DNA of 63,608 nucleotides, counting the filler, from Folioceros fuciformis (lineage: Eukaryota), in assembly GCA_049999805.1 (NCBI GenBank). It is 8 parts of 8 records of this genome, joined end to end, with 100 filler letters (N's around TTAATTAATTAA, not from the genome) between each part and the next. Parts side by side here need not be neighbours in the genome. Positions count along the whole stretch, not along the records: positions 47,888 to 56,712 come from JBNGIO010003938.1; 7 more parts are not named here. One strand, 5' to 3'. Shown here one piece after another: positions 19,887 through 61,519 of this stretch (positions are counted from its first letter, which is position 1; the number at the start of each line of letters is the position of its first letter). Both the position numbers and the translations under genes were made by a program. The notes beneath the pieces are model-generated. The model did not search any database, was not told where the DNA came from, and saw nothing but the letters and a program-made list of their open reading frames with translations.

Positions 19887-19987
19887 NNNNNNNNNNNNNN
19901 NNNNNNNNNNNNNNNNNNNNNNNNNNNNNNTTAATTAATTAANNNNNNNNNNNNNNNNNNNNNNNNNNNNNNNNNNNNNNNNNNNNA

Positions 19988-25591: not shown

Positions 25592-26920
25592 CTAGGCTAT
25601 GTGAACCCCATTCTCCCTGCCTTTGATGGTATCCCTGAAAAAGATGATGGCATCCCCGGGTGATGGCGACCTTTTCTTCAAGGACTCTGGGGGAGATGAG
25701 CACCTTTTCTTCATACCCTCCGTTGATGACTCGAAGGACACGGGTTTGGGAAAGTCCCTGGCGGACATCTCTACTACCAGTTCCAGTCCTTCGACGAGAT
25801 CACTCATTTTGGGCCTTGCCTTGGGATTCTTTATCAAGCACTGTGAAGCAAGAGAGGCCAGCTTGAGAGCTCCTCTCATGGAGAAGTTGCCCTCTAACCT
25901 GGGGTCCATGATCTGGAAGAACCTCTTGTTGTCCGCCATGTACGGCTTGATCCACTCTATCAGTCGTTGCTCCGGCTTGGGCCTGTTCTTGTCCATAGCT
26001 CTCCTTCCTGTCAACATTTCCAGTAGCACGACGCCGAAGCTCCACACATCACTCTTGGAGGTGAGGTGTCCAGTCTGGATGTACTCGGGGGCTGCATACC
26101 CTATGGTCCCCACTACCGTAGTGGTGACATGACTGTCACCCAGAAGAGGACCTTGTCTAGCGAGCCCGAAGTCGGAGAGCTTGGGATTGAAGTCGTTGTC
26201 CAGCAGCACGTTGGAGGCCTTGAAGTCCCGAAATATGATCTGAACATCCAGCTCCTCGTGCAAGTAGGCCAGCCCCCGGGCAGCTCCTAGCGCGATCTTG
26301 ACTCTCGTGTTCCACGACAGGGGAGTGGTATACCTGCGGAAAAGGTGGTCCTCCAAGCTCTTGTTGGGCACGAACTCGTAGACGAGCAATCTCTGCATCC
26401 CTCTGTCGTCATCCTCTGCACAGTAGCCCACTAACTTCACTAAGTGTGCATGCTCAACCAGGCCCAGCACATTGACCTCCGCCAGCCACTCCTTGTGGCC
26501 CTGGAGTCCCTTCCTGTTGAGTTGCTTGACCGCCACCTCCATCTTGTCCTCGTCATCGTACCTGTTGAGCTTAATTGAGCCCTTGTACACCCGGCCGAAC
26601 CCGCCCTCTCCTAACAAATTGCCCTTGAAGAAGTCGGAGGTGGCAGTCCTGAGCTCCGAGAAGGTGAAGGATCTGAGATCATCCGCCTTCTCGGACAAGA
26701 TGGAGGGTTGGCGCGGCTCCCGTAACTCGATACTAGGCTCGGAGTGGCTGGAGCGGTGGTAGAAGCTGAAGCCCGACTTGAAGGACTTGACGCTGGAGAC
26801 ATCGGTAGTGGAACCCGTACTGAAGGAAGCACCCAAGGAAGAGGAAGTCTTGCTCCTGGAATGCCCCGCTGCGGATTTCTGACTCCTGTCCGGCGACTGT
26901 GTGAAGAGGAAACACCGCAT
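25592..26920 (-). CDS. Receptor-like cytoplasmic kinase VII, PCRK/PBL19-type, intronless
   Basis: One ORF containing GEGGFG, VAVKQL, VGYCAEDDDRGMQRLLVYE (the subgroup VII-4 insertion), IIFRDFKASN, KLSDFGLAR, GYAAPEY and KSDVWSFG. Probable start MRCFLF at 26920; an upstream in-frame ATG lies at 27034. Confidence 0.93.
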   Translation of the reverse strand: MRCFLFTQSPDRSQKSAAGHSRSKTSSSLGASFSTGSTTDVSSVKSFKSGFSFYHRSSHSEPSIELREPRQPSILSEKADDLRSFTFSELRTATSDFFKGNLLGEGGFGRVYKGSIKLNRYDDEDKMEVAVKQLNRKGLQGHKEWLAEVNVLGLVEHAHLVKLVGYCAEDDDRGMQRLLVYEFVPNKSLEDHLFRRYTTPLSWNTRVKIALGAARGLAYLHEELDVQIIFRDFKASNVLLDNDFNPKLSDFGLARQGPLLGDSHVTTTVVGTIGYAAPEYIQTGHLTSKSDVWSFGVVLLEMLTGRRAMDKNRPKPEQRLIEWIKPYMADNKRFFQIMDPRLEGNFSMRGALKLASLASQCLIKNPKARPKMSDLVEGLELVVEMSARDFPKPVSFESSTEGMKKRCSSPPESLKKRSPSPGDAIIFFRDTIKGRENGVHIA

Positions 26921-27904
26921 CGTGGTGAGCCACCGCCGGCACTTCCTGGTGGTAGTCAGCCGCACCTTCTCCCCCAAGCAGGTTGCAGTCTCCACAAACT
27001 CCACGAATTTCCGGCGCGCCTTGCTATCACTCATCCGCCCCCGCTTGGTGTTCCAGCCGCCGGCTGAGGCAGAAGCGGACGCGATCTACGTCTGTGGCAT
27101 GGAAGCCGGTGACACCGAAGCAGAAGCAGCAGTGGCGAACGGTGAGTCCGTCGTGGCACGCGGCAGTCGAGCGCACATTTCGGCATCCAAATCTCACGCT
27201 CCCTGCTTCCGTGCCCTCAGATTCTTCCTTCTCAAGCTGGACACGGACACCTCCCCCGCCAACGCTGCCGCGGACTTCCTACGAAACCGCAACCGCAAAA
27301 GCCACCGCCTGGTGCAAGACAAGCTCATCCCGGTGTCTCACGGAAAGCGTCACCACCCCACCCCACCCCACCCCACCACTAGNNNNNNNNNNNNNNNNNN
27401 NNNNNNNNNNNNNNNNNNNNNNNNNNNNNNNNNNNNNNNNNNNNNNNNNNNNNNNNNNNNNNNNNNNNNNNNNNNNNNNNNNCCACTAGTCTCACCACGA
27501 TACTCTCCGCCGCGGCAGCGGCAAAGCCGAGATTCCACCACCGCCCACCAGAGCGCCCAAGCTGAGCTCCCTGAACATCGGACGAGACACTGGCTGCCAC
27601 AAAGCTACACTGTCCCCAGCCCTGTCCCTGCAGTAATTGGAGCAGGCCGGCACCCGCTCGCGCACTCTGCCTCAGCAGGCAGCGGGCAGCAGGCAGCAGG
27701 CCAGGCCTGCTCAGATGCGGCGGCACAGGCACAATTGTGTGAAGATCCGTAGGCCGGCGGGGCGGCGAGATGCCGTGCTCCGAGGCGGCTGCGGAAACAG
27801 AAGAAGCAGCGGCCGGTGCAGAGGCCTGCCGTGCCCTCGGTCTCTCAGAGGCCAGGAGCGGTAGAGCCGCAGACAGGGCGGGGACAGGGACAAGGGACAA
27901 GAAG

Positions 27905-33498: not shown

Positions 33499-33668
33499 AG
33501 TATGGAATGGTGGAAAGTGTCAAAAGAGAAAACATTAAACGTGAAGATGTCATTCACCTTCAGTGAATNNNNNNNNNNNNNNNNNNNNNNNNNNNNNNNN
33601 NNNNNNNNNNNNTTAATTAATTAANNNNNNNNNNNNNNNNNNNNNNNNNNNNNNNNNNNNNNNNNNNN

Positions 33669-34145: not shown

Positions 34146-34659
34146 CGGGTGCCACCTCTGGAGTTGCTGGATCGACGCCTGGCTCTCATACACAGCCCAT
34201 TTTTGGCTAGATAGCATTTGGCTCTTTCCTATCACAAGGAAACCCAACAACATCAACATCAGGATGGAACCTAGCAGGCAATTTTCCTAATTTTGCACCT
34301 AGACCTTTCTCAACAGGGTCAGCAGGAGGCACAAGATCAAATCCTGCCTCGACCAGGGTTGCAACAGGCATAACTGTAGTACAGGCGTTAGGTCCTTCAT
34401 CTTATTCCGGATTTCTTGCCGCACGCTATTATAACCCACTGCCAAGCTACAGAGTTGGACTTGGGAATCCACTACCTACCACAGGAGCTGGAATCACCAA
34501 CCCACTGCTGGCACTTGGAGCCGGGTATGGTAATCCCGTAAGCGGTTATGGAACCGGACTTGGACAAGGACCTCCACAACCACAAATGCCCGGTCCGGGT
34601 ACCGCGCTCACACATCCTGCACAGGCACTGCCAATAGCTTATAGCCTTCTTACACAATT

Positions 34660-37600
34660 GAGTTCAAGGAGCGAGATAGGTTTAAGGGGAATAAATATCC
34701 CGACTGGAGTGTTCGCATGGGTGCTGCACTAGATGTACAGCATGTGTGGGGTGTTGTTAGTGGACAGATCCGGCCACCTGCAGCTACTGCTCCACAAATT
34801 GATCAGGAGAGATGGGAGAATGCCAACAACGTAGCCCGAGCCCTCATCATTAGTGGGCTTGATGAAGTGTTAGTGCCAGATGTAGCTTTCCTTACCAAGA
34901 CCGAGGACATCTGGACACAACTTGCACAAACATACGATGTGAAGAATGTACTCACCCTATGTGTTGTCAGAAGTGAGCTGTTTACTCTTCGCATGTGTGA
35001 TGGTGACAAAGTTACTACTTTTGTTGGAAAATTCAGGCAACTTAGAGCTACTTTGATTTCACTTGGTTTTCCCATGCCTGAGCTTGATGCTGTAGTACAG
35101 CTTTTGACTAGCCTTCCCAATAGCTACCAATCTTTTGTCACTAGCTATGGTACCACACTTTGTGATGTTGGTAGAGCTGCAGCAGCAGGTCAACCAGTGA
35201 TGATTAGCTTTGCGGATGTAGTTGGAGCTCTCTTTCAAGAAGAGTGGTCTTGCAACCCATCGCACTTTAATTCTAGCAGGACCAAAACTGACAAGGTTTT
35301 CTCCACATCCAAGTTCCACCCACAAGGCCATAGCAAGCAATTTTCTGCAACTGGCCCTTCTAAGGATTCCAAGTCAGGACAGGTCAAGAGGACAGGTGCC
35401 TGCAATTGGTGCAGTTGTCTTGGTCATTGGGAACGAGAATGTAGAAAGAAAAAGTCTCGAGAACCTAGGAAAGCCGAGAAGACTCCTCAGGCTTATTTAG
35501 TCTCCAAGCCTTCTAAGGCCAGCACATCTGGCAAGCCTCCCGTTGTTATGATAGTTTGTCTTTCCACTGCTTCCAGGGTAGATGATGCCTGGTACTTGGA
35601 TTCCGGAGCAACGACACACATCTGTCACAACAGGACTTTGATGAGCAATTTTGTCTCACTGCACACTGTTGAACGGGTACTTTTGGGAGATGAGCTTACA
35701 AGAACATGACTCAAGATTCTTGGACGCGGCTCGTGCTATTTTCAGTCATCTAATGGAGAGCTTCTTTGACTTGACAACGTCCTCTATGTGCCTGATATGG
35801 CCAAGCATCTTCTGTCAGTAAGCCAGCTTATGCAGCTTAAACGCTTTCAGTTAACTTTTACTTCTAACGGCTGCATGCTCACTACATCTGGTCCTTCACC
35901 TTCCCTGGTTGCTATGTGCTTGCTAGAGCATGATTTATATCAGCTAGATATGTTCCGTGTACCTGTTAAGAGTGCTCGTGTGGCTGAGAGGTCTTAGACA
36001 GCTTTAGCTCAATTGTGGCATGCCCGTTTGGGCCATGCTAACAAGGATAAACTCATAAAAATATCCAACTTAGAATGTTATAGAGAACCACTACCTAAGT
36101 GCTTTAAGAAACTTCCCACATGTGAAGCCAAGTAGAAAGAACTCCCATTTCCAACCACTGTAGCTACACGGACTGCATCAGTCCTAGACCTAGTTCATGT
36201 AGATATCTTTGGGAAAATACATGTTCCTTCTTTAGGTGGTTCTCTTTATTACCTCACCATTACTGATGATTTTAGCCGCTACTCTTGGACCTTTCCCATG
36301 AAAAAGAAGTCGGACACATTTGTCTATTTTCAAGAATGGCTTACCATGGTTCAGAGATAGATTGGCTGCTCTCTTAGATGCTTGAGGTCGAACAATGGTA
36401 CGGAGTTTGTGAATGGCCCTTTTGATGAGTACTTATCTGGACAAGGGATCATTCGGCAACTGAGCATTCCATACACTTAGCAACAAACGGTGTTGCTGAG
36501 CACTGAAACCAAACTTTGCTCAACATCACTCGGAGTATGCTAGCTTGGTTTGGCTTGAGCAAGGCGTATTGGGCAGAGGCAGTTGTGACTACCACCTACA
36601 TACTCAACAGGTTGCTTACCACAGCTGTTCCTGACTGTACACCTTTCGAAAGGATCTGGAAATGCAAGCCCAGCTTGCGCCATCTCCGTGTGTTTGGATC
36701 CCCTGCATATGCTTATATTCATGAGGAACAGAGGAAGAAGATGGAAGATCGAGCTCGACCCCTTATTTTTGTTGGATATGGTGAGGAGACGAAGGCCTAC
36801 AAGTTATATGACCCCTCCACTAGATCCTCAGTCTTTGCTTGGAGCGTCACTTCCAAGGAGCTCACTCAACCAGCTACGCCATCTTCTCTTGCTTTTGCCC
36901 CTGCTCCTCACTTCGATGATGCGGATTTTGATGCCCCTCCCACAAAGTATCCTCAATATGCTGCTTATGAACCACCACCTCACCCTTGTTTTGATCAATA
37001 GGCAGCTAGCAGTTCAGGGGGTGGAATTCCCGCTTATGTGCAGGTTCCGCAGGCTCCCCTTGCATCACCGACACAGGTTCCTGTGCAAGCACTTGCACCA
37101 CTGACTCCTGCACCCACAGCCACAGTTAGTGCTGACCCTGTTTTGGAATTTCCCGAGTAGCAAGATGCAAAACTTGAGCAGGATGACGAACCAAAATTTG
37201 ACACACAACATGTGGACATCCATCCAAATGTTCCTGACCAGCTAGAAGATGAACCTGAGCTGGCAGCCCTCCTAGAACTTGAGATACCACCAGCTGAGGA
37301 GACACTTCATGAACCTGCAGTTGAGGAACGGAGGTATCCTACAAGGTCTCGTCCTGCATGAGACAACTGGAATACAAGACCATATGAACCAGAGGATTTT
37401 CGTCTTCCTCGAATCTGCAAGGCTATGTGAAGCCCTCTCTACAAGCATTGCTCATCCAGCAGAACCTCGCACATACAGAGAAGCTATCATCGGTCTAGAT
37501 AAGGCTCATTGGATTCCATCCATTCAGGATGAGTACAACTCACTAATAAAGAATGAAACAAGGGAGCTTTGCCCTCTACCTACTGGAAGGAGAACCGTAA

Positions 37601-39829
37601 GCTGCAAGTGGGTTTTCAAACACAAACTCAACACCAAAGGTGAAACAACACGCTATAAATCACGACTTGTTGCTTGTGGATTTTCTCAAGTAGCAGGTGT
37701 TGATTTTAACGGAACCTTTAGCCTAGTTGTGAAGACTTAATCTATTCGGATGATATTAGCCTTGGCTGTAGCTAGGGATTGGGATCTGGAACAAATGGAT
37801 GGATCCACAGCTTTCCTCTATGGTGATTTGGATATTTATATGGATTAGCCTGAGGGCTTTGTGGATCCTGAACACCCAGATTGGGTATGTAAGCTTAAGA
37901 AGAACTTGTACGTGCTCAAACAGAGTGNNNNNNNNNNNNNNNNNNNNNNNNNNNNNNNNNNNNNNNNNNNNNNNNNNNNNNNNNNNNNNNNNNNNNNNNN
38001 NNNNNNNNNNNNNNNNNNNNNNNNNNNGAAGAATGAAACATGGGAGCTTTGCCCCCTACCTGCTAGAAGGAGAATGGTAAGTTGCAAGTGGGTTTTCAAA
38101 CACAAACTCAACGCCAAAGGTGAAATAGCACGTTATAAATCACGACTTATGCTCGTGGATTTTCTCAATTAGCAGGTGTTGATTTTAACGAAACTTTTAG
38201 CCCGATTGTGAAGACTCAATCTATCCGGATGCTGTTAGCCTTAGCTGCAGCCAGGGATTGGGATCTGGAACAAATGGATGTCTCCACAACTTTCCTCTAT
38301 GGTGATTTGGAGGAAGATATTTATATGGATTAGCTCGAGGGCTTCGTGGATCCTGAGCACCCAAATTGGGTATGTAAGCTTAAGAAGGCCTTATATGGGC
38401 TCAAACAGAGTGCCCGTGAGTGGTATAAATGCATAGACAAGTATCTTTGCTCTATAGGTTTCCTGCAAAACCCAGCAAATTCTAATGTATGTCTACACCA
38501 AGATTGGTTACCTAGTTGTTTTAGCTCTTTATGTAGATGATGCCATCTTGGCGTCAAATAATTGAGGGCTATTAGATTGGGCTAAGGGCATGCTTCATAA
38601 ACAGTATGATCTGAAAGATATTGGCCCTCTCACTTTTGTTTTAGGCGTATAGCTTCTTAGGGACAAGGAAACACGTACTTTGATTCTTCATCAAACCAAG
38701 TACATCGAAGAGACACTTTGGCGTTTTAATCTTCAGGATGCTAAGCCAGTTAGTACTCCTGGATGTGTTGGTGTTAAGCTTTCTACTCTTCAGTGTCCTC
38801 AGGATGATGATGATCGAGAAGCCATGAGCCAGATTCCTTATCAGCATGTTGCGGGCTGCCTCAACAATATCAGCTGCTGGACACAACCTGACATCCAGCA
38901 TTCCGTGAGTGCAGTTTCACAATATCTGGAGAATCTTGGCCAAGGACACTGGATGGCCGTTAAACATATTTTAAGGTATCTGAAAGGGACTTCTACTTTT
39001 GGACTCTGCTTCAAGATGACGACCTCACCTTGAAGGGGTATGTTGATGCGGACTGGGCGACTGACCGAGATCAATGTAAGAGCATCTCTGCATACTGCTT
39101 CCTCCTATCTGGTACAGCTGTTAATTGGAGTTCGAAGAAGCACACATCCATTGCTCTCTCATCTACCGAGGCCGAATATAAGGCTCTTACGGATTCAGTC
39201 AAGGAGGCCGAATGGGAGCGGACTTTCCTTGTTGGTTTGAATTTTCCACAGGCTATCCCTACAACCATCTTCTGTGACAACATGTCAACTATAGCTTTGG
39301 TAGGGAATCCTCGATATCACGCGCACACCAAACACATAGAAGTTCACCATCATTTTGTTCGACATGCTGTGGAGCACAAGGTCATCAAGATCGAGTATAT
39401 ATCAACAAAGTTGAACACCGCTAATGTGCTTACACTTATCGACAAGCAAGCATGTCTTCCACATGGAGGCATTGGGTCTAGTAGAGTATTCTTCCTACTT
39501 GCCTTGAGTTGCAGGTGGAGGCGCTAGGTGCTGGACGGATGAAGCTTACTGCAAACATAATCGTCCAACACTCAGCTCGTTTTCTACTTTGGCCATCTTC
39601 GTTTTTGTCTACGTCCTTAGTGTAACCAGCGTCGTGGTTAAGGGGGTGTGTCAAACCATAGTTAATTATAGTAACCACGGTCACTGGGTTACCTAGACTA
39701 GGGTTAGATATATTATGAAGGGTTACATAGTTAACACGTAGGGTTTAGTATTTAAGACCAACTCTTTGTAATCATTGTTATCTCATTCATTATTCAAGTT
39801 TGTTGTTCTCTCTAAACAATATTATCACC
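34660..39829 (+). mobile_element. Degenerate Ty1/Copia element: gag (CCHC), protease, integrase, RT, RNase H, PPT and 3' LTR (from 39649)
   Basis: [74 protein letters not shown] and KHIEVHHHF motifs. PPT TTAAGGGGGTG then TGTCAAACC. An RT segment is duplicated across the gap at 37928-38027. Confidence 0.93.
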
Positions 39830-43931: not shown

Positions 43932-44031
43932 NNNNNNNNNNNNNNNNNNNNNNNNNNNNNNNNNNNNNNNNNNNNTTAATTAATTAANNNNNNNNNNNNN
44001 NNNNNNNNNNNNNNNNNNNNNNNNNNNNNNN

Positions 44032-44734: not shown

Positions 44735-47440
44735 GGCCGGGTAGAAATAGGATCAGCATCATCATCCGTCTCCAGTGCTGCGTTTTGTCCTTATTCAAGA
44801 ACAGGAGGATGTTGTTCATGCAAGGCTGGCAGATTTGGATCTTCAAGCACAGGTATGGTTTCAGGGTCAACTACACCTGCCTCATTAGTATCTGCAAAAT
44901 CAAAATCTGCTATGTCTTCCCCACCTGCAGGAACAATGTCCTCAGGTCGAACATGTTGAGTTCCATGATTAGTTTGGTCAAAATAGGAATCAACAAAGCC
45001 TGTGGAGTCTTCATCATTGTTGAGAATAGGATCCTTACTAGACTCCAAGGATGCCCAAGTGCGACTTTCATCAAAGGTAACACTTTGGGCATAGACAATC
45101 TTGTTCTTACGGACATCATAAAGCTTATAGGCTTTGATTCCTTCTATGTAACCTAACATGAGAAGCTTTTTAGCCTTATCTAACAACTTTTTCCTCTTCT
45201 CCTTAGTATGAAGGCATAAGCCACACAACCAAAAGTTTGCAAGTGTTGATCTAATGGTTTGGGACCCGTGAAGGCCTCTTAGGGGGTTTTACCTACAACA
45301 GAAGTTGTGGGTAACCTATTTCTAAGGTATGTTGAAGTCATAATGGCTTCTGCCCAATCTGACAAGGGAAGCTGAGCAGAATGTAGCAGCGAAGATGTCA
45401 TTTCCTACAAAGGTAGGTTTAGTCGCTTACCAACTCCATTCTATTGAGGGGTATAGACAACTGTTAGTTGTCGACCAATGCCTTCAACCANNNNNNNNNN
45501 TCTGTTGAGGGGTATAGACAACTGTTAGTTGTCGACCAATGCCTTCAGCCACACAGAAAGCCTGAAATTCATTGGAGGTAAACTCTCCCCCATTATATGA
45601 TCTCACAGTTTTTAGTTGCTTTCCAATCCACCTTTTAGCATACTTTAGATAATCTCTGAAATGTCTAAAGCACTCACTTTTCTGTTTCAGAATGTAGGTA
45701 GTGACAAACCTGGTTTTGTCACCTGTAAAAGTAAGGAAATATCTCCCACCTCCTATGGATTCCTATGAGAGTGGGCCACACAAATATGTGTGCACAAGTT
45801 CTAAAACCTATGAAGCCCTGTGTGGTGCTTTATTCTTAAAAGCAGCTTGATGTCTCTTAGAAAGAACACAGGACTCGCAAAGTGGGAGTGGAGCCAACGT
45901 TCCAATTGGTCCATCTTGATAAAGGTCACTAACAGCTAACCTCTGTAGTTTTGCTGTGTGAGGGTGACCTAGTCTTGCATGCCATAACTTAGACTTGTCT
46001 ATTTGTTGTGTAGGTACAGTGGTGACATCTCGAGCGAAGTGAGAGGTTGGAGCACCACTACTTGTATGAAGACGAAAAAAATCATGATTTTTAGAACCAT
46101 AGGCAAGTATTTTTCTATGGTCAAATGCATCCAGCAGTTGACACTCAGTTCTCGTAAATAGCATATGACAGTTATTGTCAGCATTCATCTTTCTGACTGA
46201 AATTAGATTTCTAGTCATGTCTGGCACATAGTAAACGTCATGCAGTGTTAGTACTGCACCGGACAGAACTAATAAGTCTATTGTGCCACGGCCAGGGGAC
46301 ACTAAGGATCTGTCATCTCCCAGGTAAACGTATTGATCCTTAACTGACTAATATGTTTGAAAAGATCCTTTGTCAAAGAAAATGTGTGCTGTAGCACCTG
46401 TATCTAAGTACCAGTCTACAGCTTGGCTTACCTTCAATTTTGTTGACAAGCAAGCAGGATGCAAGTATGAACTTGCAAAGACTCTCGTACCTACAATGAG
46501 GGCAGAGGGGGTAGGTTGTTTCTTCACAACCACGTGAGTCCCAGCAACTGATGAACCTCCTTGCGAGGAACACTAGATTGCTTCTTTCTACACTCACGTT
46601 CCCAATGACCAGGTAACTTGCACCAGTTACAAGTTCCTATTCTTTTGGGTTTTCTTTGGTTGGCTCCTTGTTCTTATGAGCCACCACCTCTAGATGACCT
46701 ACCTCCACCTGTATTGTAGGGTTTTCCTCCCCCACGACCCCTATTGGATGTGTAGAGGGCTTGCTGTTTTCCAGAACATTTACTGGAACTCCTTGTTGCT
46801 TCTTCTTGGAGCAATGCTCCCACTAACTCTGCAAAGGTGGTTTCAGGAAGTGTAACATTTGCTGCCTTTGCCAGTTTTGAGGTTTGAAGATATGAAGCAT
46901 TAAAAGATGTCACAAAATGTGACCCTGATTTTGGGAGAGATAGTAAGAAGTATAAGGTTAGCATATCTTCTTTGACATTCTCATTTGAGTCACTCTCTAG
47001 TTTAGAGATAAGTGTCCTGAAATGACCAAGGTGCTTCTCTACTAATTCTCCATCTTTCATCTTGCAATCCTGTAAATTACGCAAGGCTTTCAACTGACTC
47101 GTTGTGTTGCTGCCTGAATACAGGTCCTGAAGTCGTGTCCAGATTTCTGCTGAGGTTTTATTTCCAGATGTCTGCCTCAGCATATCTGAGGTTAAACCAC
47201 TCCGGACGAGGAACATGGCAGCTTCATCTTTAGCCACCCATTCGTCCTTTTTAATCGTTTCAGCGGTGGTAGGTGTGGTGGTAGTAGTTGGGAAGTCTTC
47301 ATCACCAACAGCTATCTTCCAAAGCTTTTTATTTTGTAAAGCTCCACGCATTCTGATTACCCATATATCGTAATCATACTCACCAAATATGTCCTTTTCC
47401 CTAAACCCTTCCCCACCATAGCTAGATGAGGGATCAGCCA
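44735..47440 (-). mobile_element. Degenerate Ty1/Copia gag-protease-integrase
   Basis: Gag ORF 46674-47440, CNWCKLPGHWEREC, WYLDTGATAH, LWHARLGHP, RSYNGGEF and MLGYIEGIKAYKLYD. Its zinc knuckle is closely related to that of the 34.7-kb Copia. Confidence 0.92.
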
Positions 47441-48299
47441 TTTTTCCTCTTTGGTATTCTAGGTTAGCTACTCCCAAAACACTAACATACTAACAATGAC
47501 TGACCTTTATGGGTTTGTTTATCTAGACCTTAGGCACGTGTATCTTCAGCAACAGAGTCAAAGAATGTTAGCAACAAGGTTAGACAAACTGTCTACAGGT
47601 ATGTTTACTAACCCATGGTGCTGTTGTGGTGGCAAAACCCCGGGCACTGTTTGCCAATGGGTTCAACCTTTAGCAGCCACACTTATCCCATTATCGTTGA
47701 GACATTGGGTTTCCTTCCTATGAAAGAGCGATGGGGTTCCTAGCTGCTATGGATGGAGGGTCGGACTCAATCGACTCGATGACAGATNNNNNNNNNNNNN
47801 NNNNNNNNNNNNNNNNNNNNNNNNNNNNNNNTTAATTAATTAANNNNNNNNNNNNNNNNNNNNNNNNNNNNNNNNNNNNNNNNNNNNCGATATAAGTTAT
47901 GTTAATAATTATGTAAATTATAATTATGTAATAAATAGGTCATATTAATATTTATACAAATAATAATTAGTTAAGAATTGAGTCATGTTAATGATTATGA
48001 AAATAATAATTAGTTAAGAATTGTGTCATGTTAATGATTATGAAAATAATAATTAATTAATAATTGAGTCATAGCTACTTGAAGGGAAACAAATCTTACA
48101 ACTACACCACTCGTGCTAAAATGTGCAGCTAGTAGGATTGCATTGAAAAGTGGTTCTACACTATGGAGTCATCAACATTCAAAGTTAAGGCATAGCAATA
48201 GTCGTAGGTGAGGAGACAAGATGGTCATAGATTGGAGCAGGCCCAAACTTGCATCATAATGGTAAGGTTGTTGGCGATCAAGATTGAAAATACTTAAGG

Positions 48300-48552
48300 A
48301 AATAGTTATTCCCTTTTGGTGCACATGTACTATTTATGTGCAAAAAGAACAGAGGACTTAGATTGTGTCTAGATTATAGAGCTTTGAACCGTATCATGAT
48401 CAATAATGCATATCTTTTGCCAAGAATGGATGACATGTTTGACAGGTTGAAGGGTGCCAAGTATTTCACCAAGCTGGACCTGATGGTAGAGGACTATCAG
48501 ATCAAGATTGCTGAAGGGCATGAGTACAAAACAACATGTAGAACAAGATACA
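48300..48552 (+). mobile_element. Ty3/Gypsy RT N-terminal fragment
   Basis: PFGAHVLF..KK.RGLRLCLDYRALN...YLLPRMDDMFDRLKGAKYFTKLDL...YQIKI...KTTCRTRY. Confidence 0.9.
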
Positions 48553-48729
48553 TAAAAAGGGGACCTAGCCAAGGGCTAAGTACAGTGTAGTGGAGTTGAG
48601 TTCAATATTTGGATGGTATGCAGTACTCATGCATAGCTGCACATTCAAACTCCTCATTAAGTGTTGCTAGAACTGTCCTGTGAATCTTAGATTTCTATTG
48701 TAATACTTGTACACATACTTTTTGAACAA

Positions 48730-50200
48730 GTATACATACCTCAAAAGCGTCACTCCCTTCTTGGTGGGGATGAAGTGTGCTTGCCTGGTGAATTTATCAA
48801 CCACTATCATGATAGCTGTAAATCCATTATTGGGAGGCAAGGGCATGATGAAGTCTATAGAAATGCTTTTTCATGGCCCCTTTTGGGATAGGTAGGGGTT
48901 GTAACAAACCTATCGGTCTAGACTGCTCAACCTTATCCTGCTGACAAACAACACATGCCTTGACATAATCCAATGTATCTTCATACATTCCTTGCCAATA
49001 AATAGCTTCCTCAACTTTTCATAAGTTGAATCACCTCCACGGTGACCAGCACTTGGCACATCATGACACTTAGAAAGCAATTTCTTGTTCAAGCCTACAA
49101 AGTTAGGGATCATAACTCTCTTCTGTTTGAATATCAATAGTCTATCTCGGAGTTTGAACATGCTTCCTTTCTCTGCCACCCTATTCGTCCAGTCCTACAC
49201 TTCAGGATCTTGCAGATAAGCTTCTTTAATCTCTTTGTGACCATCCTAAGGTTCAATCACAATTGTCATTGCCTTCACTTCTTGACTCTACTTGCAACTC
49301 AGCGCATCTGCAACCTTATTCTCTTTTCTAGGTTTATATCTAAGAGTCGCATCATACACAATTAGAAAATCTTGCTATCTAGCTTGTCCCGCATTCAAGT
49401 TCAATTAGTTTGAGAAGTATGTTGTTCTAATATTATTAGTATACATCACAAAAGACCTACTCAAGAGATAGTGCCTCCAAGCCTTTTAGACAGTGAATGA
49501 TAGCAATCATCTCCTTCTCATACGTGGGATACTTCCTCTTATAAGGATGCAACTTCCTTGACTCAAAAGCTAACGTCTTTTGGTCTTGCATCAAAACTCC
49601 ACCTATAGCCACATCTGAGGCATCACAATACACTTCCACATCTCTCTTGGGGTCATACATTCCCAACATCGAAGTAGTACTTAACTTCTTCTTCACGTAT
49701 TCAAAGGTTGCCTAACACTCAACATCCCATCTCCAAGCTTTTGCTATCTTCAAGAGGTCAATTANNNNNNNNNNNNNNNNNNNNNNNNNNNNNNNNNNNN
49801 NNNNNNNNNNNNNNNNNNNNNNNNNNNNNNNNNNNNNNNNNNNNNNNNNNNNNNNNNNNNNNNNTCTTAGCAAATATATGTACAAACCTCATGTACACAG
49901 AAGCCAAACCCATAAAGCTTTGCACCTCATGAATGTTTCGATGGGGCTGTTAATCTTTGAATGACCTTAACTTTATCAGGATCCATTCTAATGCCCTTGG
50001 CAGAGATAATGAAACTTAAGAATGGACTCTCTATCTTGACAAAATCACACTTCTTGATTGCCAAGAACAAAGAATTCTCTCTTAGTCTTTATAACACTTT
50101 CCTCAAGTGTTCCACATGCTCCTCCAAGATATGACTATAGATCAAAATGTAATCGAGATAGATTAGAACACACTTATCCACCAGATCTATGAATATAGTG
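48730..50200 (-). mobile_element. Ty3/Gypsy RT C-terminus, RNase H and integrase fragments
   Basis: KCVLIYLDYILIYS, VYCDASDVAIGGVLMQ...AFESRKL...YPTYEKE, NKVADALS, CHDVPSAGHRGG and ISIDFIMPLP motifs. Confidence 0.9.
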
Positions 50201-50569
50201 GAGGAGGAAATAACAAAGCTATGTGGTAGTGAATAATAACTTAAAACTTAAATAAATAGTTGTTAAGTTAGTGACTAGAGCTTATGTATAAAAAGGGACC
50301 AAGCCAAGGCCTAAGGATTCCACAGTTGAGTGGAGTTGAGTATCTCCACAAAGCGTTGAGAACAATGGGTGCTTGGGCTGCACCTTGAGAGCATGTGTTG
50401 CTTGGGCCGTAAGTACATAAGAGATATACTGTGAAGAGCTTCCATAGGAGGTCAAGAGAAAGGGAGAACTAAACTCCTAGCTTAAACAAATATGGGAGTT
50501 CTCTCTAACCCTCCAACTTTGTATGTTCTTGTGGTTCTGAAATAAAGAGCGGCAGCTCTTAAAGAAGAG

Positions 50570-50725
50570 GGCGGGCATGTTCACCATACTGGACAAAGGC
50601 ATCAACTTGGTGTCCTTATTCCACGAGTTGTGTATGAAGCTGCTTTCCCTTCTCCAATCCCTGGGAGCCCATGCTTGCACATCCCTAGAGGAGGCAGATA
50701 AATATCACAGAATCAGGGACAAGGG
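50570..50725 (-). pseudogene. PPR gene fragment
   Basis: LVPDSVIFICLL*GCASMGSQGLEKGKQLHTQLVE*GHQVDAFV is a typical plant PLS-PPR segment with stops. Confidence 0.7.
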
Positions 50726-52403
50726 CTGCGACAGTTCTTCGAATCAGGCAGATGCGCACCCTTTCCACTGCATTACTTGGGTGGCACTGGCAAGATTGCC
50801 AGGCTTGAAATGCACCTGTCGAATTTCCGTCACCGGGCCGCGGGGACAAAATCTGGTCTGCATCACTGCTTCGCACAATTAGCCCCATCCTACTAGTCCC
50901 TTCTACTGTAGTTCTGGCATTAAAATTCCAGTCGCGAGGACTTGCATGCACCATGATCGATCCGACGCTCTTCCAGCAGTGGGCCAAGGTCGATCAAAAA
51001 TAAGTTCCTGACGGTCGGAACTCTTGAAGAGCTCACCCTAACTTCATTAGGCGTGACCTCCATGAGCATCACTCGTATGTGTTTCTGTTAAGCAATTGAC
51101 GATGAAGGCACGTGGTGGCCTCAGCCACTAGTGACAAGGTACAGGAAGATCCCACCCGTAGCGACTTCCCGCACTCCGCCGCGGAACCTCTCCCCTCGAT
51201 TGCCGACAGGCAGAGCTCTGAAGATTGGGCACATCCTGAATGGGCTCAGTAAAGAAGCCTTTCGGAAGGGCAACGAAATGAACGTTCAAATCTTGGAAGA
51301 CGACAAGAGGCAGATTCGGTTCTTCGGAACAGCCGGGTTTGCAAACAAATGTGATCGACTTGTACATGCTTGCTCGCTATGCACCGTTTAGTCAGACATA
51401 TGCGTGTGTATGTCTTCAAATGGGTTAAATATTGGTCACCAGTGTATTGGTCAGCAAATCGATGCTGGCATGCAACAAAACAAATTCTGTCGAGTCCATA
51501 ATGTTACATGTGGCAGCCTTGGAACTGCGTATGCTACCGTTGTGAGCCGCTTCAGGAAACCCGACAACAAGGACTGCAACCGTTGACGATGCCCAAGGTT
51601 TGAGAGGACATGTGTTCGTGGTGACTGCCCCTAGCTTTTCACATAAATGGCATACGCTGGAGACATGGACGGAATGAAACACAACAGCAACAGGCCACAA
51701 CATGTCTCTGCACAACCATGTCGATAGCATCCAAAACATGGACAACCTACAGCACAGGAGCAACCACCTATCTACCACTGCGCCCTGTCTCCACCAGTTC
51801 CTACGCCAACTCATCCAGTTGCCCCTTCCAAGGGGTCCACAGTTGCTGCAAGGGTTCGCACGGTCTCTTCACAGCATCCGCTTGTCTGATGCACCACAGC
51901 CACAATGAGCGACCGTCCAGTGACCTACCGCTCGCTTCTGTCTGGTGTTACTGTTACATGAAGGCTTCTGAGGAGCTCCAGATGCGATTTGATCGTGGGA
52001 CATCTTGTTCCAGCTTTCGCTGCTCGGAAACTGAAATATCCATCCTAAAGATGAAAACGAAAGACGTGAAAATCACAAGACCGCAACTGTGTGTTTGCCT
52101 CTTCAAACCTAGAGCTGGAGCTGTGTACGAAACCGCAGTGCAACACGTTCTTCCCTCCCTACCGATAGCATCCATGAGCCATCATCTGCTCATGGACATC
52201 AGGACGTTGTGAGAGGTCTCTCTTGCCTAACAGGAATTAATGCGTAGAAAGGGAGAAGTGAGAAAACGCTCTCAGAAGCAGTTTCATACAGTCACCGACA
52301 AACAATCAGGATGTAGCTGAAGACGATACCTGACATTTGCTTCAAGGCATTACAGGACCCAGCTGGCCACACGCTAGCCAGGCATATGGAGAGCAAGGAA
52401 TGA

Positions 52404-53016
52404 TCAAGACCACTGATGCTTTTTCTCGGTTGTGGTGAGGACCTGGGAATCTTGGAATCTTTCCTACAATCCTTGTACGGTTATTTGCGAAACCTCCATG
52501 CCCCTGAGCTTGCGAATCACGCTTGTTAGAATGTTCATCACGCTTCTCAGAGAGTGCTTAATGATGGCTTCCATGAAAGCCATGATAAAGTTTGTGCCTT
52601 CCTTGACGTCTCCAAAAGATTTACCTCCAGGACTCGTGGAGAAACCACGAGAACGTCGCTCAAAGAATGAAGGAGTCGAATCCTCGTGCTGGCACCTGGC
52701 TTTCCTCAACACCAGACCCGTTAGCTTTGCTCCCAGTGGCAGGGTTGGCGGCGCCTAACCCTGCTTTTCTATCCTTTTGACAAGACTGCCAGTGCCTCGA
52801 CAGGCATTTATGACAAGCACCTAGTGCAGATCGCACCTAGTGCCAAGCACCTGCCGTGTTTGCCAAATACCTGCATTCTGCGATGGGCTTCACATATCAT
52901 CTTCAACATCAAGCTTCTCGGCCTTGTCTGCTTCACCTAAGCAAACATACTGTCTACCATCTTCTTCAGTTCGACCATGGGCATTGACACACAACACAGA
53001 GCAATGGTTGTCTTCC
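52404..53016 (-). pseudogene. Partial, diverged second copy of a caspase (C14A) p20/p10 domain
   Basis: EDNHCSVLCVNAHGRTEEDG (His-Gly at 52974-52979), ECRYLAN, VLVINACRGTG (52794-52808), FSTSPGGKSFGDVKEGTNFIMAF, ILTSVIRKL and RFQDSQVLTTTEKKHQWS*. Frameshifts and stops are present. Confidence 0.8.
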
Positions 53017-53037
53017 AGGGCTTAGGGAATGGAATGG

Positions 53038-53840
53038 TTAAGACCAGCATAGCTTTTTACTAAGTGTGCTGACGAACTGGGGACATTGAAATCTCTTCTC
53101 CCATCCTTCTTGAGTTTGTTGCCATCTCTTCATGCGCTGGACCTTGCCATGCACTCTTGTTAGAATACTCACCACATCTTCTGTTTGAGACTGATCAATG
53201 ATGGCGATTATGAAAGCCATGATGAAGTTTGGGCCTTTCTTGACATCTCTCAAAGATTCATCTCCAGGACTGGTGGAGTAAATGGTGAGAAAGTCGCTCG
53301 CATAATACAGGGGTCGAATTCTCTTGCTGGGACCCTGGCTTTCCTCAATGTCTGAGCCCATGGCTTTGCTGCTAGTGGCAAGGTTGGCGGTGCCTGAACC
53401 CTGCGCTTTCACGCTTTTGGCAAGATTGCCAGTGCCTCGACAATCATTTATGACAACCACCTTAGGCTTGTTAGCCAAATTCCCTCATTCAGCGATGCGC
53501 TTCAAAATAAATTATTCAACATAAAGCTTCTCCGCCTGGTCTGCTTCACCTAAGCGAACATACTCTCTACCATCTTCTTCAGTCCACCATGGCATTAACG
53601 CAAAACAGAAAGCAATCGTCCTTTTCGAAGTCAGGATGCCGGACAACGTGCTCCAACGTTGATTTCGCTTCCTTAAGATCGTCCACCACACAGGCTATCT
53701 CAAACTTCAAGGGCACACCACGGAGTAGAACGTCAAGTCGCCTCTGTCTAGCTGTCCTCCATCTGTCTTTTTCCATACTAACTATCGTTGCAAGACCTCG
53801 TCGGTAACCTGCTTTGACCCTTTCGCTTCGATATGACGGC
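53038..53840 (-). pseudogene. Animal-type caspase domain (peptidase C14A, p20 + linker + p10), frameshifted
   Basis: SYRSERVKAGYRRGLATIVS...LKFEI...DDL...DFEKDDCFLFCVNA[H]G, then E*GNLANKPKVVVINDCRG (Cys codon 53440-53442), then ASDFLTIYSTSPGDESLRDVKKGPNFI...ILTRVHGKV...QCPQFVSTLSKKLCWS*. Confidence 0.88.
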
Positions 53841-53849
53841 TCCTTCCCT

Positions 53850-54690
53850 GACTTCAGTAGAGGCGGTCCCTGTGACTGACTTTGGATACGATGGTTCCTT
53901 CCCTGAGGTTCTCCACGCACTCAGTCCTGATGATCCCTTCTACTAGTTCAACTCCCTCCAGGACTACCTTCAGCAGAAGCACAAAATGCTCTCAGTTCCG
54001 CAACAAAACTCTGCTGGAGAAATTCGATCGTTTCGTCTTTGCTCTTGAGTGACCTCATCAAAATGTCAACACGATCACCAATGTCCCCGGTCTCCTCCCC
54101 AGTATCCCCAGTGCTCTCCAAACATACGTCCATAACATAGTAGTTAAATTTGATCAAGTTGCGTGCAATGCTATACTGATGACACTGCATACCCTAGAGT
54201 CCATTAAACAAGATCTGTCGTAACTTGACCTGCAATGCACAACCATTGGCCATGTCATGAAAGCCAAAGAGAGCATATATCACTGGCGAAATGTCACAGA
54301 CCTCACAAGGTAACGTATTTGGAATCTTGGAAAGAAGCCTGGACGACAAACGTCTTCGTTTATCTCGGCATAGTAGCCACCTCTCTAAGTAGTTGTACTT
54401 GTGCCCTGTACCACCCTTCCAGTCTCTCGGCATTGTAGCCGCCTCCCTAAGTACGTGTACTTGCGCACTGTACCACCCTTCCAGACCAACTGTCGTTTCC
54501 CTTGAAGATCTTTACCTTCTGTGTCATCCAAGGTGAAGGGAACGAAGAATCCAGGGCTAGGGTTCGCATCATCTTCATAGCACAAGTTTAGTCTCTTCAT
54601 CAATAATAATACGAGATCTTCACCACGAGTCTCGTCCGCTTCCGTACCTTTGAGGATCTGATGACCTGGTCCAAGGTTGCATTGAGGAGA
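53850..54690 (-). pseudogene. TORNADO1-like Roco protein COR C-terminal region with one intron (~54231-54317), contiguous with the caspase domain
   Basis: EDLVLLLMKRLNLCYED...FVPFTLDD...YLGRRLQC...PGFFPRFQ|VKLRQ...RVDILMRS.KS.DET...FCASAEGSPG/VELVEGIIRTECVENL, matching recalled TRN1 motifs (LCYEKD, GRHL.C, GFFPRLQV, IDVLA.S, E.IIRP.CV..L). Confidence 0.8.
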
Positions 54691-56906
54691 TTTTGAGGCA
54701 AAATTTTTCTAAGCTGCTGCTTCCACCTTTCCTTCCCTCCCCCACTTGTCACCTGAGGACAGAACATGACTGTTGCTACACTGCACCTTGTAGGAGAGAT
54801 GCTTTCCTTCACATGGAAGGTGGGTCTGTGGACCGTAGGATCCCACCACCTGCGCTCTGCTCTGCTCAGCTCAGCTGGGCTCCCAGCCCATTCATCGTCA
54901 TCCGTTCCTTTAGACCTTTTTCCTCTGAATGAGAGTGCCCGTCTGGGTTACTTCAAATCCCACATTATACGTACCTCGGAAATATACATCATGCCTGCCA
55001 AAGGGAGAAAAGTCAGATTGCGTATTCGAATGAGAAACAGTCTGTATGTCGTTTCGTTCTGAATTGTGCGTGCATCAAAAGGTCTGCCTCCCGTTGTACT
55101 TAGGTTGGCTCAGCTATCGTAAAAATAAAGGCGAGCACGCTGAAGGATGCAGAGGGCGATTCGTCGGCAGAGCGCAGGGAAGGAGTACACAAACTAACGT
55201 CCACTACCCATACAAACTATGCAATTCTCTCATTCACACAAGCTATGCAATTATCCTGTTCAATGTGTGCCAAACAAGGAGCAAACAAGGAGAGAAGAAA
55301 CAGTCTCATCCTCCGCATTGTCGGAAGACAAACCTTCAATTAGTGGACCCCGTCCGTCGAATACTCCAGGTAGAAAGGGTCCAGTTCTGAATAAGCTCTC
55401 GGGTTCCTGTTTGGAACGCTGGACATGGTAGGGCGTGGAGGTGCATAGAGGAAATTCCTTCTGCACCTCCTCATTTCAGCAAGATGCCATCAGCATTGCC
55501 CCGCTCATGAACTCATGTTAGCCGTCAGTGGAGGGGTCAGATATCCGATTGGAGCGGTGGCAATGCAAGACTGGCCAGGACGAATGGGCCGTTCTGATGG
55601 AAGGCTGGCATCCATGTTCCACATCCCCGCCCTACAAGAGCTCGAGTCACAACACGACACAGCACTGTGCCTTTGGCCCGGTACATCAGTCAGAACGAAA
55701 GACAAGTTGGCTTGCTGACTGGCCAAGTTGTCTCACTTCTGCAACCAGCCATCAGGGATGAGAATCTGCATTTGTGGGGCAACGCCTTACACACAAGCCG
55801 AAACGAGTCGCACAGCCCGGCTAATGAAACCTCTGCCCACCAACACCGAGATACGCCCCGTTCACAATTCCCCTCGACATCCTGAAGGATCCCGGGAAGA
55901 ACAACTTACTTGAAATCAACCTGTGCATTAGGCAACTGGAGATTCATCAACGATAATTTACTTGAAATCTGCTGTTTTGGAGTTCCTGCCAATTCCCACG
56001 GTAACTGCACAAACGGAAACAGAGCTCAGCACACCGCAAACCAGGTCGGTCTGCTATTTCTTGAACCTGCACCGACAGAGAGATGTCAGGTATGACACTC
56101 CGAGCAGCTCCCAGTACGATGCAAGACCGTACTGTATACCACTGGTGGTCGGTCGGTCTGGAACTTGTCCGGCCCACACGTTTCCTGCGGGATCGAGATC
56201 GGGACACGAATACTAAATACAGTACATGTGTGTCGGTCAGTGTTCAGTAAGAGAACCCGGGCTTTATTGAAAGGAAGAGAGAGGAGCACGTGGTCCAAAC
56301 CAGGATAAACCACGGCGACAGCACCGAACCCAAAACGTGCTACCACTGGAATCACTGTGACACGAAGGCACAAGCTCCCGACGCCAGTTCAGAGAGGGAC
56401 ATCCTATCCCAGCTTTTGCCTGGTCGGGAAGGGAAGATATGAAGCATACATCCTCACGCTGGTGTACAAAACAATGTAAACACCAGAAGACGCCAAACTT
56501 GGACCTGCTTCTTGAAGCCAACATCTCCCAGCTGTGTACGAACACAGCACCATCTTCCCTCCCTATACATGGCCTCCACGACTCATCATCTGGTCATCCA
56601 CACCAGGACACTGTGAGAGGGCTTTATTGCCAAACAGGCAGAGAACGGGAGGAGACGTGACAAGGTCGGATCAGAAGCAGTTCGACACACCAACAAACAG
56701 GCAGTACAGTATNNNNNNNNNNNNNNNNNNNNNNNNNNNNNNNNNNNNNNNNNNNNTTAATTAATTAANNNNNNNNNNNNNNNNNNNNNNNNNNNNNNNN
56801 NNNNNNNNNNNNAGGAAAAATAAGTTGAAAAAGAAAACCAAACCATACCACTATTAACCCTTTTTCAACCAAAACAAACTACTACCCCAAACTTTGGAGG
56901 TTCACA

Positions 56907-59990: not shown

Positions 59991-61519
59991 CGGTAACCGT
60001 TCTAACCACAAATGCTAACTACTATAACTGTTTTAATAATTTGGATTGAAATAAAATTACTTTACTATAACTTCCAACAAGCTCTCCCTCCTCCTAATCC
60101 ACCCAACCACGTTCTCGGAATTTCTAACACTATGCCATGCTCAAAGAGTATGTATGTTCNNNNNNNNNNNNNNNNNNNNNNNNNNNNNNNNNNNNNNNNN
60201 NNNTTAATTAATTAANNNNNNNNNNNNNNNNNNNNNNNNNNNNNNNNNNNNNNNNNNNNCATGTTACAATGGTCTCAGGTGTATGACGCGCACTTGGACG
60301 TGCCAGGCTTCATGGTGGGTGGATACTTGTGCATGCCACAAAAGCCTATAGGTTTGGTATCCTTGAAACCCACAGTTTGAAATTAATCAGACACAGGCAT
60401 AAAACATGGTTTTCGAGAACAAAGAGTATGAATGAACATTCGGAATCATGTATGGACGGAAATCTAATACATTCGTGTCCCGTCACAGTATTCATGGTGT
60501 GATTGCATCATGAGGAGTGCGCATTGTCCTCCTTTTACCACCTACAATAACCCATGAAAACCAAGTACAATGGCAAGAATGGCCATTTACCGTTTGGATT
60601 TAGAGCAAAACCCCATTTTTGTGGACACACTCGAACTATTTCAGATGACGTTCATTTAGTTTCTCTCCATGAGTGGCCCTCCACAAGAAATGGAGGAACC
60701 CATTGCTAAAGTAGCATGTGCGTTGATAGTTGACAAGGCCAAGAATTATTTTCGTAAACAACTTTCACTTAAGGCCCTTGATTTGGTCTATCCTCTAGCC
60801 ATTCTTGGTTTTTGACTACAATCCTCCTGTCAACATGTCTATGGCCCCATCAGGTAGCTAGTGAAGGGGTCGTTGACCTTCAACCATGTGTGGTCTTGTC
60901 NNNNNNNNNNNNNNNNNNNNNNNNNNNNNNNNNNNNNNNNNNNNNNNNNNNNNNNNNNNNNNNNNNNNNNNNNNNNNNNNNNNNNNNNNNNNNNNNNNNN
61001 TTGTCCACCAAGCTAATTCCATCACTCTTCGTCTATGACCTTCTGTAAACGTGCCAAATGTTGCAAACAATCCAACAACGAGGGTTAAGTGCTTGTGTTG
61101 TGGTCCTTCAGAGCTATCAATTCCTTGTCTATCTTTTGAACATTCATGTAACACTCCTCGACCAGGCTCTTATGTGAGAAAGCCCAATGTCTTCCATTGA
61201 CTCATTAGAGCTATATGTTTTCTTCTCTTGCCCAAGATTAGAACTCAAATAAATCACGTGAGCACAATTGGTTGCTTAAACAAGTGAAAGTCAAAATAGG
61301 AATAGTTGCATGTGGAACGGAAAAGTTTGGTAATCGGTTTAGGAAAGTTTCACTTGGTTTCTTTTTGCTTAGAACAGTTCGAAGGGAGGCATGTGGAAGG
61401 TAGGTTTCTGGGCAAGCGCCCACGATAGGCAGTGAGCGGTTGGTGAAGGTTTTTATGGATTTTTTTAGTTCTATTCTGGTAGGTTAGGTGTGTGGTAATA
61501 GGACTAAGTAGTATCGGGT

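Follow-up and report, generated by a model that had tools for sequence, protein, structure and literature searches.

A decayed copy of a caspase-type protease gene and, next to it, a truncated duplicate were found on an 8.8 kb scaffold (JBNGIO010003938.1) in the genome assembly of Folioceros fuciformis (NCBI GenBank assembly GCA_049999805.1). The scaffold is one part of a window of 63,608 nucleotides, by which we mean the whole stretch of DNA that was analysed. The protease would carry a novel putative prodomain, and both copies belong to a repeat family that most likely forms part of the plant's own genome. Passages of three sources describe caspases as restricted to animals, with plants having metacaspases instead (PMC5756287; 10.1101/2023.04.28.538660; PMC12521494). 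An original prediction, made from the sequence alone, had proposed an animal-type caspase domain in a land-plant genome at this position.

All of the caspase blocks named in that prediction, from p20 through p10 and in the right order, are present in the minus-strand translations where they had been placed. Together they constitute a complete p20-linker-p10 caspase-type domain at 53038-53851, which runs across three alternating reading frames. The parts of this copy (copy 1) are listed below; P0010, P0011 and P0074 are related proteins described further on.

53591..53851, minus strand: caspase p20 part, with RGLATIVSMEK, the R-x-GGQLDRG block (S1 arginine), LKFEIACVVDDLK and DCFLFCVNA (translations; tblastn with P0010, P0011 and P0074)
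53584..53591, minus strand: catalytic His-Gly site, wrecked by two 1-bp deletions; copy 2 has gcc cat ggt there
53485..53583, minus strand: remaining p20, reading TEEDGREYVRLGEADQAEKLYVE, stop, FILKRIAE, stop (in-frame TAA at 53512-53514 and TGA at 53485-53487)
53038..53484, minus strand: 148-aa open frame (53484-53041, stop to 53038) with LANKPKVVVINDCRG, a low-complexity linker, SDFLTIYSTSPGDESLRD and QCPQFVSTLSKKLCWS

Frame -2 of copy 1 (53851-53591) reads GYRRGLATIVSMEK ... LKFEIACVVDDLK ... DCFLFCVNA, and the p20 contains two compensating frameshifts at ~53762 and ~53740. Frame -3 opens with TEEDGREYV and then meets the TAA and the TGA. The catalytic Cys codon (53442-53440) lies within LANKPKVVVINDCRG, where the active-site motif is INDCRG. 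The low-complexity linker occupies ~53433-53305, and the p10 that follows contains SLRD (within ESLRD), which carries the second S1 arginine, then QCPQFVSTLSKKLCWS and a stop. Copy 1 had been taken for either a pseudogene or a sequence with sequencing errors; it is a pseudogene, with two in-frame stops and at least five frameshifts. The loss of a single base at the His-Gly site had also been proposed; the site is indeed broken, with a 1-bp deletion disrupting the His codon, and copy 2 is intact there, but two 1-bp deletions are seen rather than one. The R-x-G-x-x-x-D block, thought to be restored by two compensating shifts, is confirmed by the relatives and by genomic copies with an extra base behind 53740. 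The p10 S1 arginine (SLR) is present as described and is conserved in the relatives.

The caspase domain is genuine, and chance cannot account for it: when copy 1 was read through with an X placed at each break, the translation reached 135.5 bits against a caspase-domain hidden Markov model (HMM) built from 27 other proteins, covering 2-245 of its 248 positions, whereas 200 shuffled read-throughs of copy 1 scored at most 1.4 bits. The Pfam profile check that had been suggested gave a significant match between Peptidase_C14 (PF00656) and the 148-aa frame (E 2e-15, 57.5 bits, cut-off 21.4). The same frame matched caspase-7 and caspase-3 chains in the PDB with a best E of 2.4e-8, and effector caspases account for all 60 listed of the 136 chains matched. 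An alignment with the p10 of caspase-7 was obtained, and the caspase-type p10 and C-terminal strand are in one chain with the p20.

The second copy that had been claimed does exist, at 53018-52407, with 74% DNA identity to copy 1 over 620 bp. Further upstream, copy 1 has an N-terminal domain.

52407..53018, minus strand: copy 2, a partial head-to-tail duplicate that begins just 5' of CVNAHG (tblastn, 40% identity over 140 aa)
53914..54133, minus strand: N-terminal domain, with a possible start Met at 54133-54131 and a frameshift near 53955; it matches no known family

CVNAHG and INACRG are intact in copy 2, which has stops and frameshifts of its own and in which the second S1 arginine has become Gly. 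The ratio of nonsynonymous to synonymous substitution rates (dN/dS) between the two copies is 1.08 over 170 codons, with differences by codon position of 48/33/35; the copies have drifted neutrally after the duplication.

That the gene extends upstream of the caspase domain is a point absent from the original prediction. In tblastn, residues 6-52 of P0074 correspond to 54097-53957 and residues 51-65 to 53958-53914 in another frame (joint E 4e-7). About 170 residues precede the caspase domain in P0011 (450 aa) and P0074 (427 aa), and copy 1 lacks ~90 residues from the middle of the N-terminal region that both proteins have. The window DNA is collinear with the intact proteins across the caspase domain (tblastn), which indicates that the gene is intron-less there. 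The N-terminal region had no match in Pfam, in PADLOC or NCBIfam (both at E<=0.1) or in Atlas clusters. An AlphaFold2 (AF2) model of residues 1-184 of P0011 is of low confidence over most of its length and, at that confidence, shows a helix-strand-strand-helix arrangement rather than an all-helical death fold. Judged from sequence comparison, the N-terminal domain is a novel putative prodomain with no detectable homologue beyond the clade members P0011 and P0074, and it may act in regulation or recruitment. The product of an undamaged gene would be ~430-450 aa long, with an N-terminal domain of unassigned fold and a C-terminal caspase-type (C14A-like) protease domain, and would be encoded without introns.

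A HMMER search of 1.84 billion representative proteins returned 62 at E<=1e-3, the best of them 32-35% identical, and no close animal relative was found among those representatives. An organism name was available for 13 of the 30 clusters looked up: 12 were animals (molluscs, echinoderms, insects and a mite) and one was a hornwort. The hornwort protein, P0006, is a Trinity transcript from Nothoceros aenigmaticus (EukProt) and is the sole named member of a clade that also holds P0010, P0011 and P0074, which are intact or near-intact proteins from public contigs (P0074 was found using P0011 as query). All 12 animal-named relatives fall outside this clade. The four proteins and the window gene share the motifs RGxAxIxSME, R-x-G-G-x-x-D-R, (V/I)NAHG.T.EDG, KPKV..(V/I)NACRG and QCP..VSTL.K.L.W. 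The N-terminal domain is common to P0011, P0074 and the window gene, and pairwise identity among clade members is 33-40%. No angiosperm relative was found in these searches, word-indexed protein searches with the 148-aa frame (near and longer lengths) gave no match, and IMG/VR and the Joint Genome Institute (JGI) metagenomes, searched by pattern and by tblastn, yielded no relatives.

Trees were built from domains covering at least 200 HMM positions, together with the whole of P0006 and both X-masked copies from the window; proteins with only partial domains were left out, as were five cluster members that are nearly identical. A quick tree of 57 rows unites six clade rows (P0006, P0010, P0011, P0074 and the two window copies) with a Shimodaira-Hasegawa-like approximate likelihood ratio test (SH-aLRT) value of 98. 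A more careful tree of 55 rows, from which the long-branch rows P0057_d2 and P0052_d1 were also dropped, recovers the same six rows at bootstrap 96 and SH-aLRT 86, the bootstrap being not fully settled. P0012 is a weak sister of the clade (78/81), and the backbone is weak.

By its motifs (NAHG and N[A/D]CRG) and by its nearest sequences and modelled folds, which are those of animal caspases, the family is caspase-type (C14A-like) and not metacaspase, in agreement with the original prediction. P0011 spans the whole PF00656 profile (E 8e-34) and matches caspases-3, -6, -7 and -8 in the PDB (best E 1.3e-15), with caspases making up all 60 listed of the 179 chains matched. In its AF2 model, the predicted local distance difference test (pLDDT) score is 80-98 for the greater part of residues 185-430, which make up the caspase domain, and low in the linker; the top Foldseek matches of this model are caspase-7 and caspase-3 (template modelling (TM) score ~0.8). 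VIA-align ranked the model against structure representatives as follows.

Caspase-3, -8 and -9: Z 27-28, 25-29% identity
Insect and nematode caspases, and caspase-4: Z 22.7-25, 19-24% identity
MALT1: Z 22.6, 16% identity
Arabidopsis metacaspase 4 (AtMC4): Z 19.5, 14% identity
Arabidopsis metacaspase 9 (AtMC9): Z 18.7, 14% identity
GSU0716: Z 18.5
Yeast Yca1: Z 15.9, 20% identity

Across 27 aligned sequences, R203 of P0011 (S1 pocket) is invariant, while H260, C306 and R360 are at least 90% conserved; the pocket arginines R203 and R360 align with Arg residues of caspase-3. The corresponding S1 pocket residues of caspase-1 we take to be Arg179 (in R-x-G-x-x-x-D), Arg341 (in S-x-R) and Gln283 before the Cys. 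The metacaspase motifs SGHG and D[A/S]CHSG are not matched by the family, which has NAHG and NACRG instead, together with both S1 arginines. According to passages of one review of these proteases, caspases have a basic pocket, cleave after Asp and dimerise through the p10, whereas metacaspases have an acidic pocket, cleave after Arg or Lys, depend on calcium and do not dimerise (PMC5756287). Intact members of the family would be Cys-His proteases whose S1 pocket is basic, having two Arg and an Asn where Gln would stand, and such a pocket suggests that they probably cleave after Asp. They may be active as dimers formed through the last beta-strand, as animal caspases are, and could undergo processing in the linker, which contains Asp.

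When residues 185-430 of P0011 were modelled as a homodimer, the score was 0.68 and the best of three controls reached 0.02, with a symmetric interface at 413-423 in the last strand (417 pairs with 417), although this pass may reflect memory of solved caspase dimers and so indicates likeness, not binding. The runs agreed on at least 46% of contacts, and the partner pLDDT was at least 71. The mark used for the score is reached by 21 of 30 solved same-chain pairs and by 0 of 23 solved single chains; the figure for eukaryotes is 17 of 29, falling to 1 of 7 where no older solved relative exists.

Among known systems, the family most resembles the animal effector caspases (caspase-3/-7, C14A), which are its best sequence (E 1e-15) and fold (Z 27-28, TM 0.8) matches. 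It shares with them the p20-linker-p10 order, the His-Gly site and xACRG, the pocket arginines of R-x-G-x-x-x-D and S-x-R, a KPK before the active-site strand, a Q-x-P-x-x-S-x-L-x-K-x-L-x-[FW] C-terminal strand and a predicted last-strand dimer. It differs from them in that identity is only 24-29%, the pocket Gln has become Asn, and the prodomain of ~170 aa has no CARD, DED or Pfam match; moreover, the gene is intron-less, multi-copy and decayed in the window, and its source is apparently a plant. A long N-terminal region is also found in initiator caspases (caspase-8/-9, Dronc and CED-3; fold Z 22.7-28), but that of the family is not an all-helical death fold in its low-confidence model and has no detectable homologue. 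The plant metacaspases AtMC4 and AtMC9 (C14B), the expected C14 members in a plant, have the same clan-CD caspase/haemoglobinase fold and His-Cys dyad. They are, however, only 14% identical (Z 18.7-19.5), and the family has basic-pocket arginines and caspase motifs. The paracaspase MALT1 has a caspase-like fold (Z 22.6) and, in passages of the same review, is activated by dimerisation (PMC5756287). It is only 16% identical, and those passages describe paracaspases as lacking a homologous p10 and cleaving after Arg (PMC5756287), whereas the p10 of the family is clear.

Viral C14 proteins, such as the executioner caspase of Spodoptera frugiperda ascovirus and the 'caspase domain' proteins of giant viruses, are likewise caspase folds encoded outside animals' own genomes and would be a conceivable vehicle of transfer. 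They are only 8-15% identical, however, their best Foldseek E is 7e-11 against 2e-19 for animal caspases, and IMG/VR yielded no relative. A giant-virus or ascovirus origin was rejected because the BFVD matches are only 8-15% identical. A bacterial or defence-system type was also rejected, as neither the caspase nor the N-terminal domain has a PADLOC or NCBIfam match at E<=0.1; two weak NCBIfam rows of P0010 below the cut-off are both from unrelated families.

The gene is one of many copies. Three public sequencing runs (X1-X3), which come from two studies (2025 and 2017) and share a single coded organism label, contain 36-45% of the words sampled from 52300-54300. Contigs placed on 49865-56712 at >=85% identity numbered 678 in X1, 654 in X2 and 298 in X3. 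In X1, 77 of them were 99% or more identical, 162 were 95-99%, 277 were 90-95% and 162 were below 90%, with at most 10-12 distinct contigs over one position. This depth and divergence show that the gene and its flanks are a diverged multi-copy repeat in the labelled organism. X3, the older and independent run, has contigs without any difference from the window at 51851-52124 and 52692-52943. No contigs from run X5 (another organism in the same study) were placed, a negative that may be false.

Most of the lesions of copy 1 are absent from other copies. At 53514, all contigs have C for A, which turns TAA into GAA (Glu), and at 53485 most have G for T, which turns TGA into TGC and so encodes the Cys that is conserved ahead of KPK. 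Bases inserted behind 53590 (which restores CAT, His) and behind 53584 give CAT-GGT and restore the frame; a base inserted behind 53740 likewise repairs the frame, and the sequence then reads DRGRL, like that of P0011. At the site of the N-terminal frameshift, other copies lack 4 bases at 53952. Since other copies are open at both stops and at four frameshifts, these lesions are private to one or a few copies, and less decayed paralogues exist. The insertion at 53584 is absent from part of the depth (59.9/155.5 in X2 and 235.3/561.1 in X3), and the state seen in the window therefore exists in reads.

Two further observations concern the sequence on either side of the copies. Just upstream of the caspase gene, 54363-54484 is a 62-bp tandem repeat (2 units, 88% matches); other genomic copies skip ~79-80 bp there, so the number of tandem units varies between copies. 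Downstream of copy 2, three X3 contigs (X3 is guessed to be RNA) skip the 144 bp at 52186-52329, joining 52185 to 52330, with GT..AG on the gene strand and a short side of 27 bases. This skip may be an intron, but it does not occur in X1 or X2 and is too weak for a claim of splicing or expression.

The land-plant host that had been proposed for the domain is supported in part. Multiple copies in the runs of two studies, a hornwort clade-mate and the lack of a close animal relative favour it, but the plant genes of the window sit on other scaffolds. The window is an artificial string of at least eight scaffolds, joined by seven linkers and also containing plain N gaps, another point absent from the original prediction, and gene neighbourhood across the linkers is therefore meaningless.

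47888..56712, no strand: caspase scaffold, 8.8 kb, bounded by the linkers at 47788-47887 and 56713-56812
15050-15149, 19887-19986, 33569-33668, 43932-44031, 47788-47887, 56713-56812 and 60160-60259: artificial linkers of 100 bases each (44 N, then TTAATTAATTAA, a six-frame stop, then 44 N)

The caspase scaffold has a guanine-cytosine (GC) content of 0.46 and an observed/expected CpG ratio of 0.59, inside the range of the other seven segments, which lends weak support to a plant origin. Overall, a plant origin of the scaffold is likely.

Several points weigh against an own, caspase-like protease family in this plant. The caspase scaffold is connected to plant-gene scaffolds by artificial linkers alone, and at E<=1e-5 it has no DNA repeat in common with the other scaffolds. 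P0006, as a Trinity transcript, might be a contaminant in its own right, and X1 and X2 may be the source data of the assembled record. The trees are unrooted and contain caspase-like rows only, and so do not tell whether the clade belongs within animal caspases or next to them. Among 15 billion predicted proteins none exceeded 40% identity, and an intact paralogue from this organism is therefore not recorded. In all clade members with the motif, Asn takes the place of the pocket Gln. Finally, P0074 keeps the N-terminal domain, the His-Gly and both pocket arginines but has ISGHG where the others have NACRG; without the catalytic Cys, it looks like a pseudo-protease paralogue.

The family could have become multi-copy as the cargo or a part of a mobile element, the caspase gene having been horizontally transferred from an animal, an unknown eukaryote or a virus. 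We regard this as possible rather than probable; it is a refinement of the explanation preferred here and does not exclude it. Such an origin would account for both the copy number and the absence of introns across the caspase domain. The flanks are repeated along with the gene over the whole 6.8 kb, and identities of 33-40% within the clade are as in fast-evolving or conflict-related genes. The scaffold also carries Ty3/gypsy fragments, and direct repeats of ~400 bp flank the gene, 4.4 kb apart.

48306..49949: truncated Ty3/gypsy pol fragments; minus strand, reverse transcriptase (RT) connector, RNase H and integrase; plus strand, an RT fragment (open reading frames; RT_RNaseH_2 E 3.8e-23, Integrase_H2C2, RVT_1)
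56346..56638, minus strand: direct repeat R1, upstream of the gene; similarity continues toward the scaffold end at 56712
51942..52234, minus strand: direct repeat R2, downstream of copy 2, 4.4 kb from R1

The minus-strand gypsy frame runs on across the 100-N gap at 49765-49864. These pol fragments are, however, separate from the gene and truncated, and no transposase, reverse transcriptase or other element protein is in frame with the gene or adjoins it. R1 and R2, which can be aligned over ~400 bp, are 67.5% identical over 305 bp, far under the 85-99% seen between copies of the family, and the regions downstream of the two repeats have no further similarity to each other. No inverted repeat of at least 25 bp was found, and no Pfam family passed among the 10 open reading frames scanned in the flanks (49950-52400 and 54200-56712). 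A viral source is disfavoured by the lack of IMG/VR relatives and by the 8-15% identity of the BFVD viral C14 proteins, and from a tree without an outgroup no donor can be named.

Alternatively, the caspase scaffold might be non-plant: an animal, protist or fungus living with the plant, or sequenced alongside it, would have contributed this DNA, which then became an unplaced scaffold of the record. Micro-animals are often present in bryophyte samples. Nothing joins the scaffold physically to plant genes, the 12 relatives outside the clade that carry an organism name all come from animals, and the sole plant-labelled relative is a de novo transcript. We nevertheless consider this source unlikely. 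The best animal relative among the 1.84 billion representatives is only 32-35% identical, and the family has its own N-terminal domain, motifs and separate clade. It is present as a diverged repeat in runs eight years apart that share one organism label, with exact matches in the older run. Moreover, the intron-less decayed gene lies beside gypsy fragments, and its GC and CpG values resemble those of the other segments.

It is more improbable still that the locus is intact and that its stops and frameshifts are assembly errors. The record is fragmented (22 N runs in 63.6 kb), and most or all X1-X3 contigs are open at both stops and at the four frameshift sites. These contigs are mostly paralogues, however, with 77 of the 678 in X1 at least 99% alike, and part of the X2 and X3 depth shows the state of the window at 53584. 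Nor would such errors fit the ~90 absent N-terminal residues, the adjoining truncated duplicate or a dN/dS of ~1 between the copies. That the gene product is a plant metacaspase that has diverged, or some other protease of family C14 or clan CD with no more than a resemblance to caspases, can practically be dismissed: although a single Pfam model covers all C14 and metacaspases are known in land plants (in passages of PMC5756287), the NAHG and NACRG motifs, both basic pocket residues, the C-terminal caspase strand with its dimer model and the fold ranking (caspases at Z 27-28 and 25-29% identity, Arabidopsis metacaspases at Z 18.7-19.5 and 14%) all speak against it, and no bacterial-type NCBIfam or PADLOC family matched at E<=0.1.

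Other features of the window lie apart from the caspase gene. The very start of the caspase scaffold (47895-48072) is an AT-rich 43-bp tandem repeat of 4.1 units. On another scaffold, 25592-27085 (minus strand) is a single 497-aa open frame for a complete plant kinase of the PBL/RLCK-VII type, its kinase domain uninterrupted by introns; the best solved relatives are PBL2 (E 1.6e-107), RIPK and BIK1. This kinase and the copia elements described next, all on other scaffolds of the same record, form part of the link to a plant. Flowering-plant PBL genes have several introns; the intron-less kinase may be a retrocopy or may reflect an intron-poor lineage. Ty1/copia-type elements occupy scaffolds of their own at 34211-39527 (plus strand) and 44791-47489 (minus strand), with gag matching Retrotran_gag_2 (E 1.9e-24 and 9.4e-27); by eye, both also seem to have frames for integrase and for RT/RNase H. 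Frames resembling the endonuclease and reverse transcriptase of a long interspersed nuclear element (LINE) were also seen by eye at 16021-17658 (plus strand), with a 100-N gap within. At 9060-9551 (plus strand), 24-bp tandem repeats translate as (VMEYRCGQ)n and grade into related units.

A literature search that had subscription journals and supplements outside its reach turned up no description of a caspase-type gene from any land plant, hornworts and other bryophytes included, and none of a transposable element of plants that contains a caspase domain. What is new here is a caspase-type domain that has a new putative prodomain, forms a new clade and most likely has a host in which it was not expected. 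Annotators should take note that protein databases do not show the family, since the copies seen are decayed and lie in repeats.

A bolder reading, which we put forward only tentatively, is that a land-plant lineage, comprising at least this organism and the hornwort, has its own true caspases, Asp-directed and dimer-activated, with a novel prodomain and with some members intact and expressed. Either they would have come from an animal-like donor, with a mobile element multiplying them, or they would be a relic showing that caspases are older than animals. No angiosperm relative was found, and the family alone would accordingly not explain the caspase-like activities of flowering plants. A multi-copy genomic caspase-type family in a plant lineage would contradict the animal-only view of caspases. 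It would be a concrete candidate case of plants acquiring a cell-death protease horizontally, or of caspases having arisen before the animals, and would yield an enzyme whose Asp specificity is directly testable. On the bolder reading, the family would be an overlooked class of plant cell-death or immune proteases.

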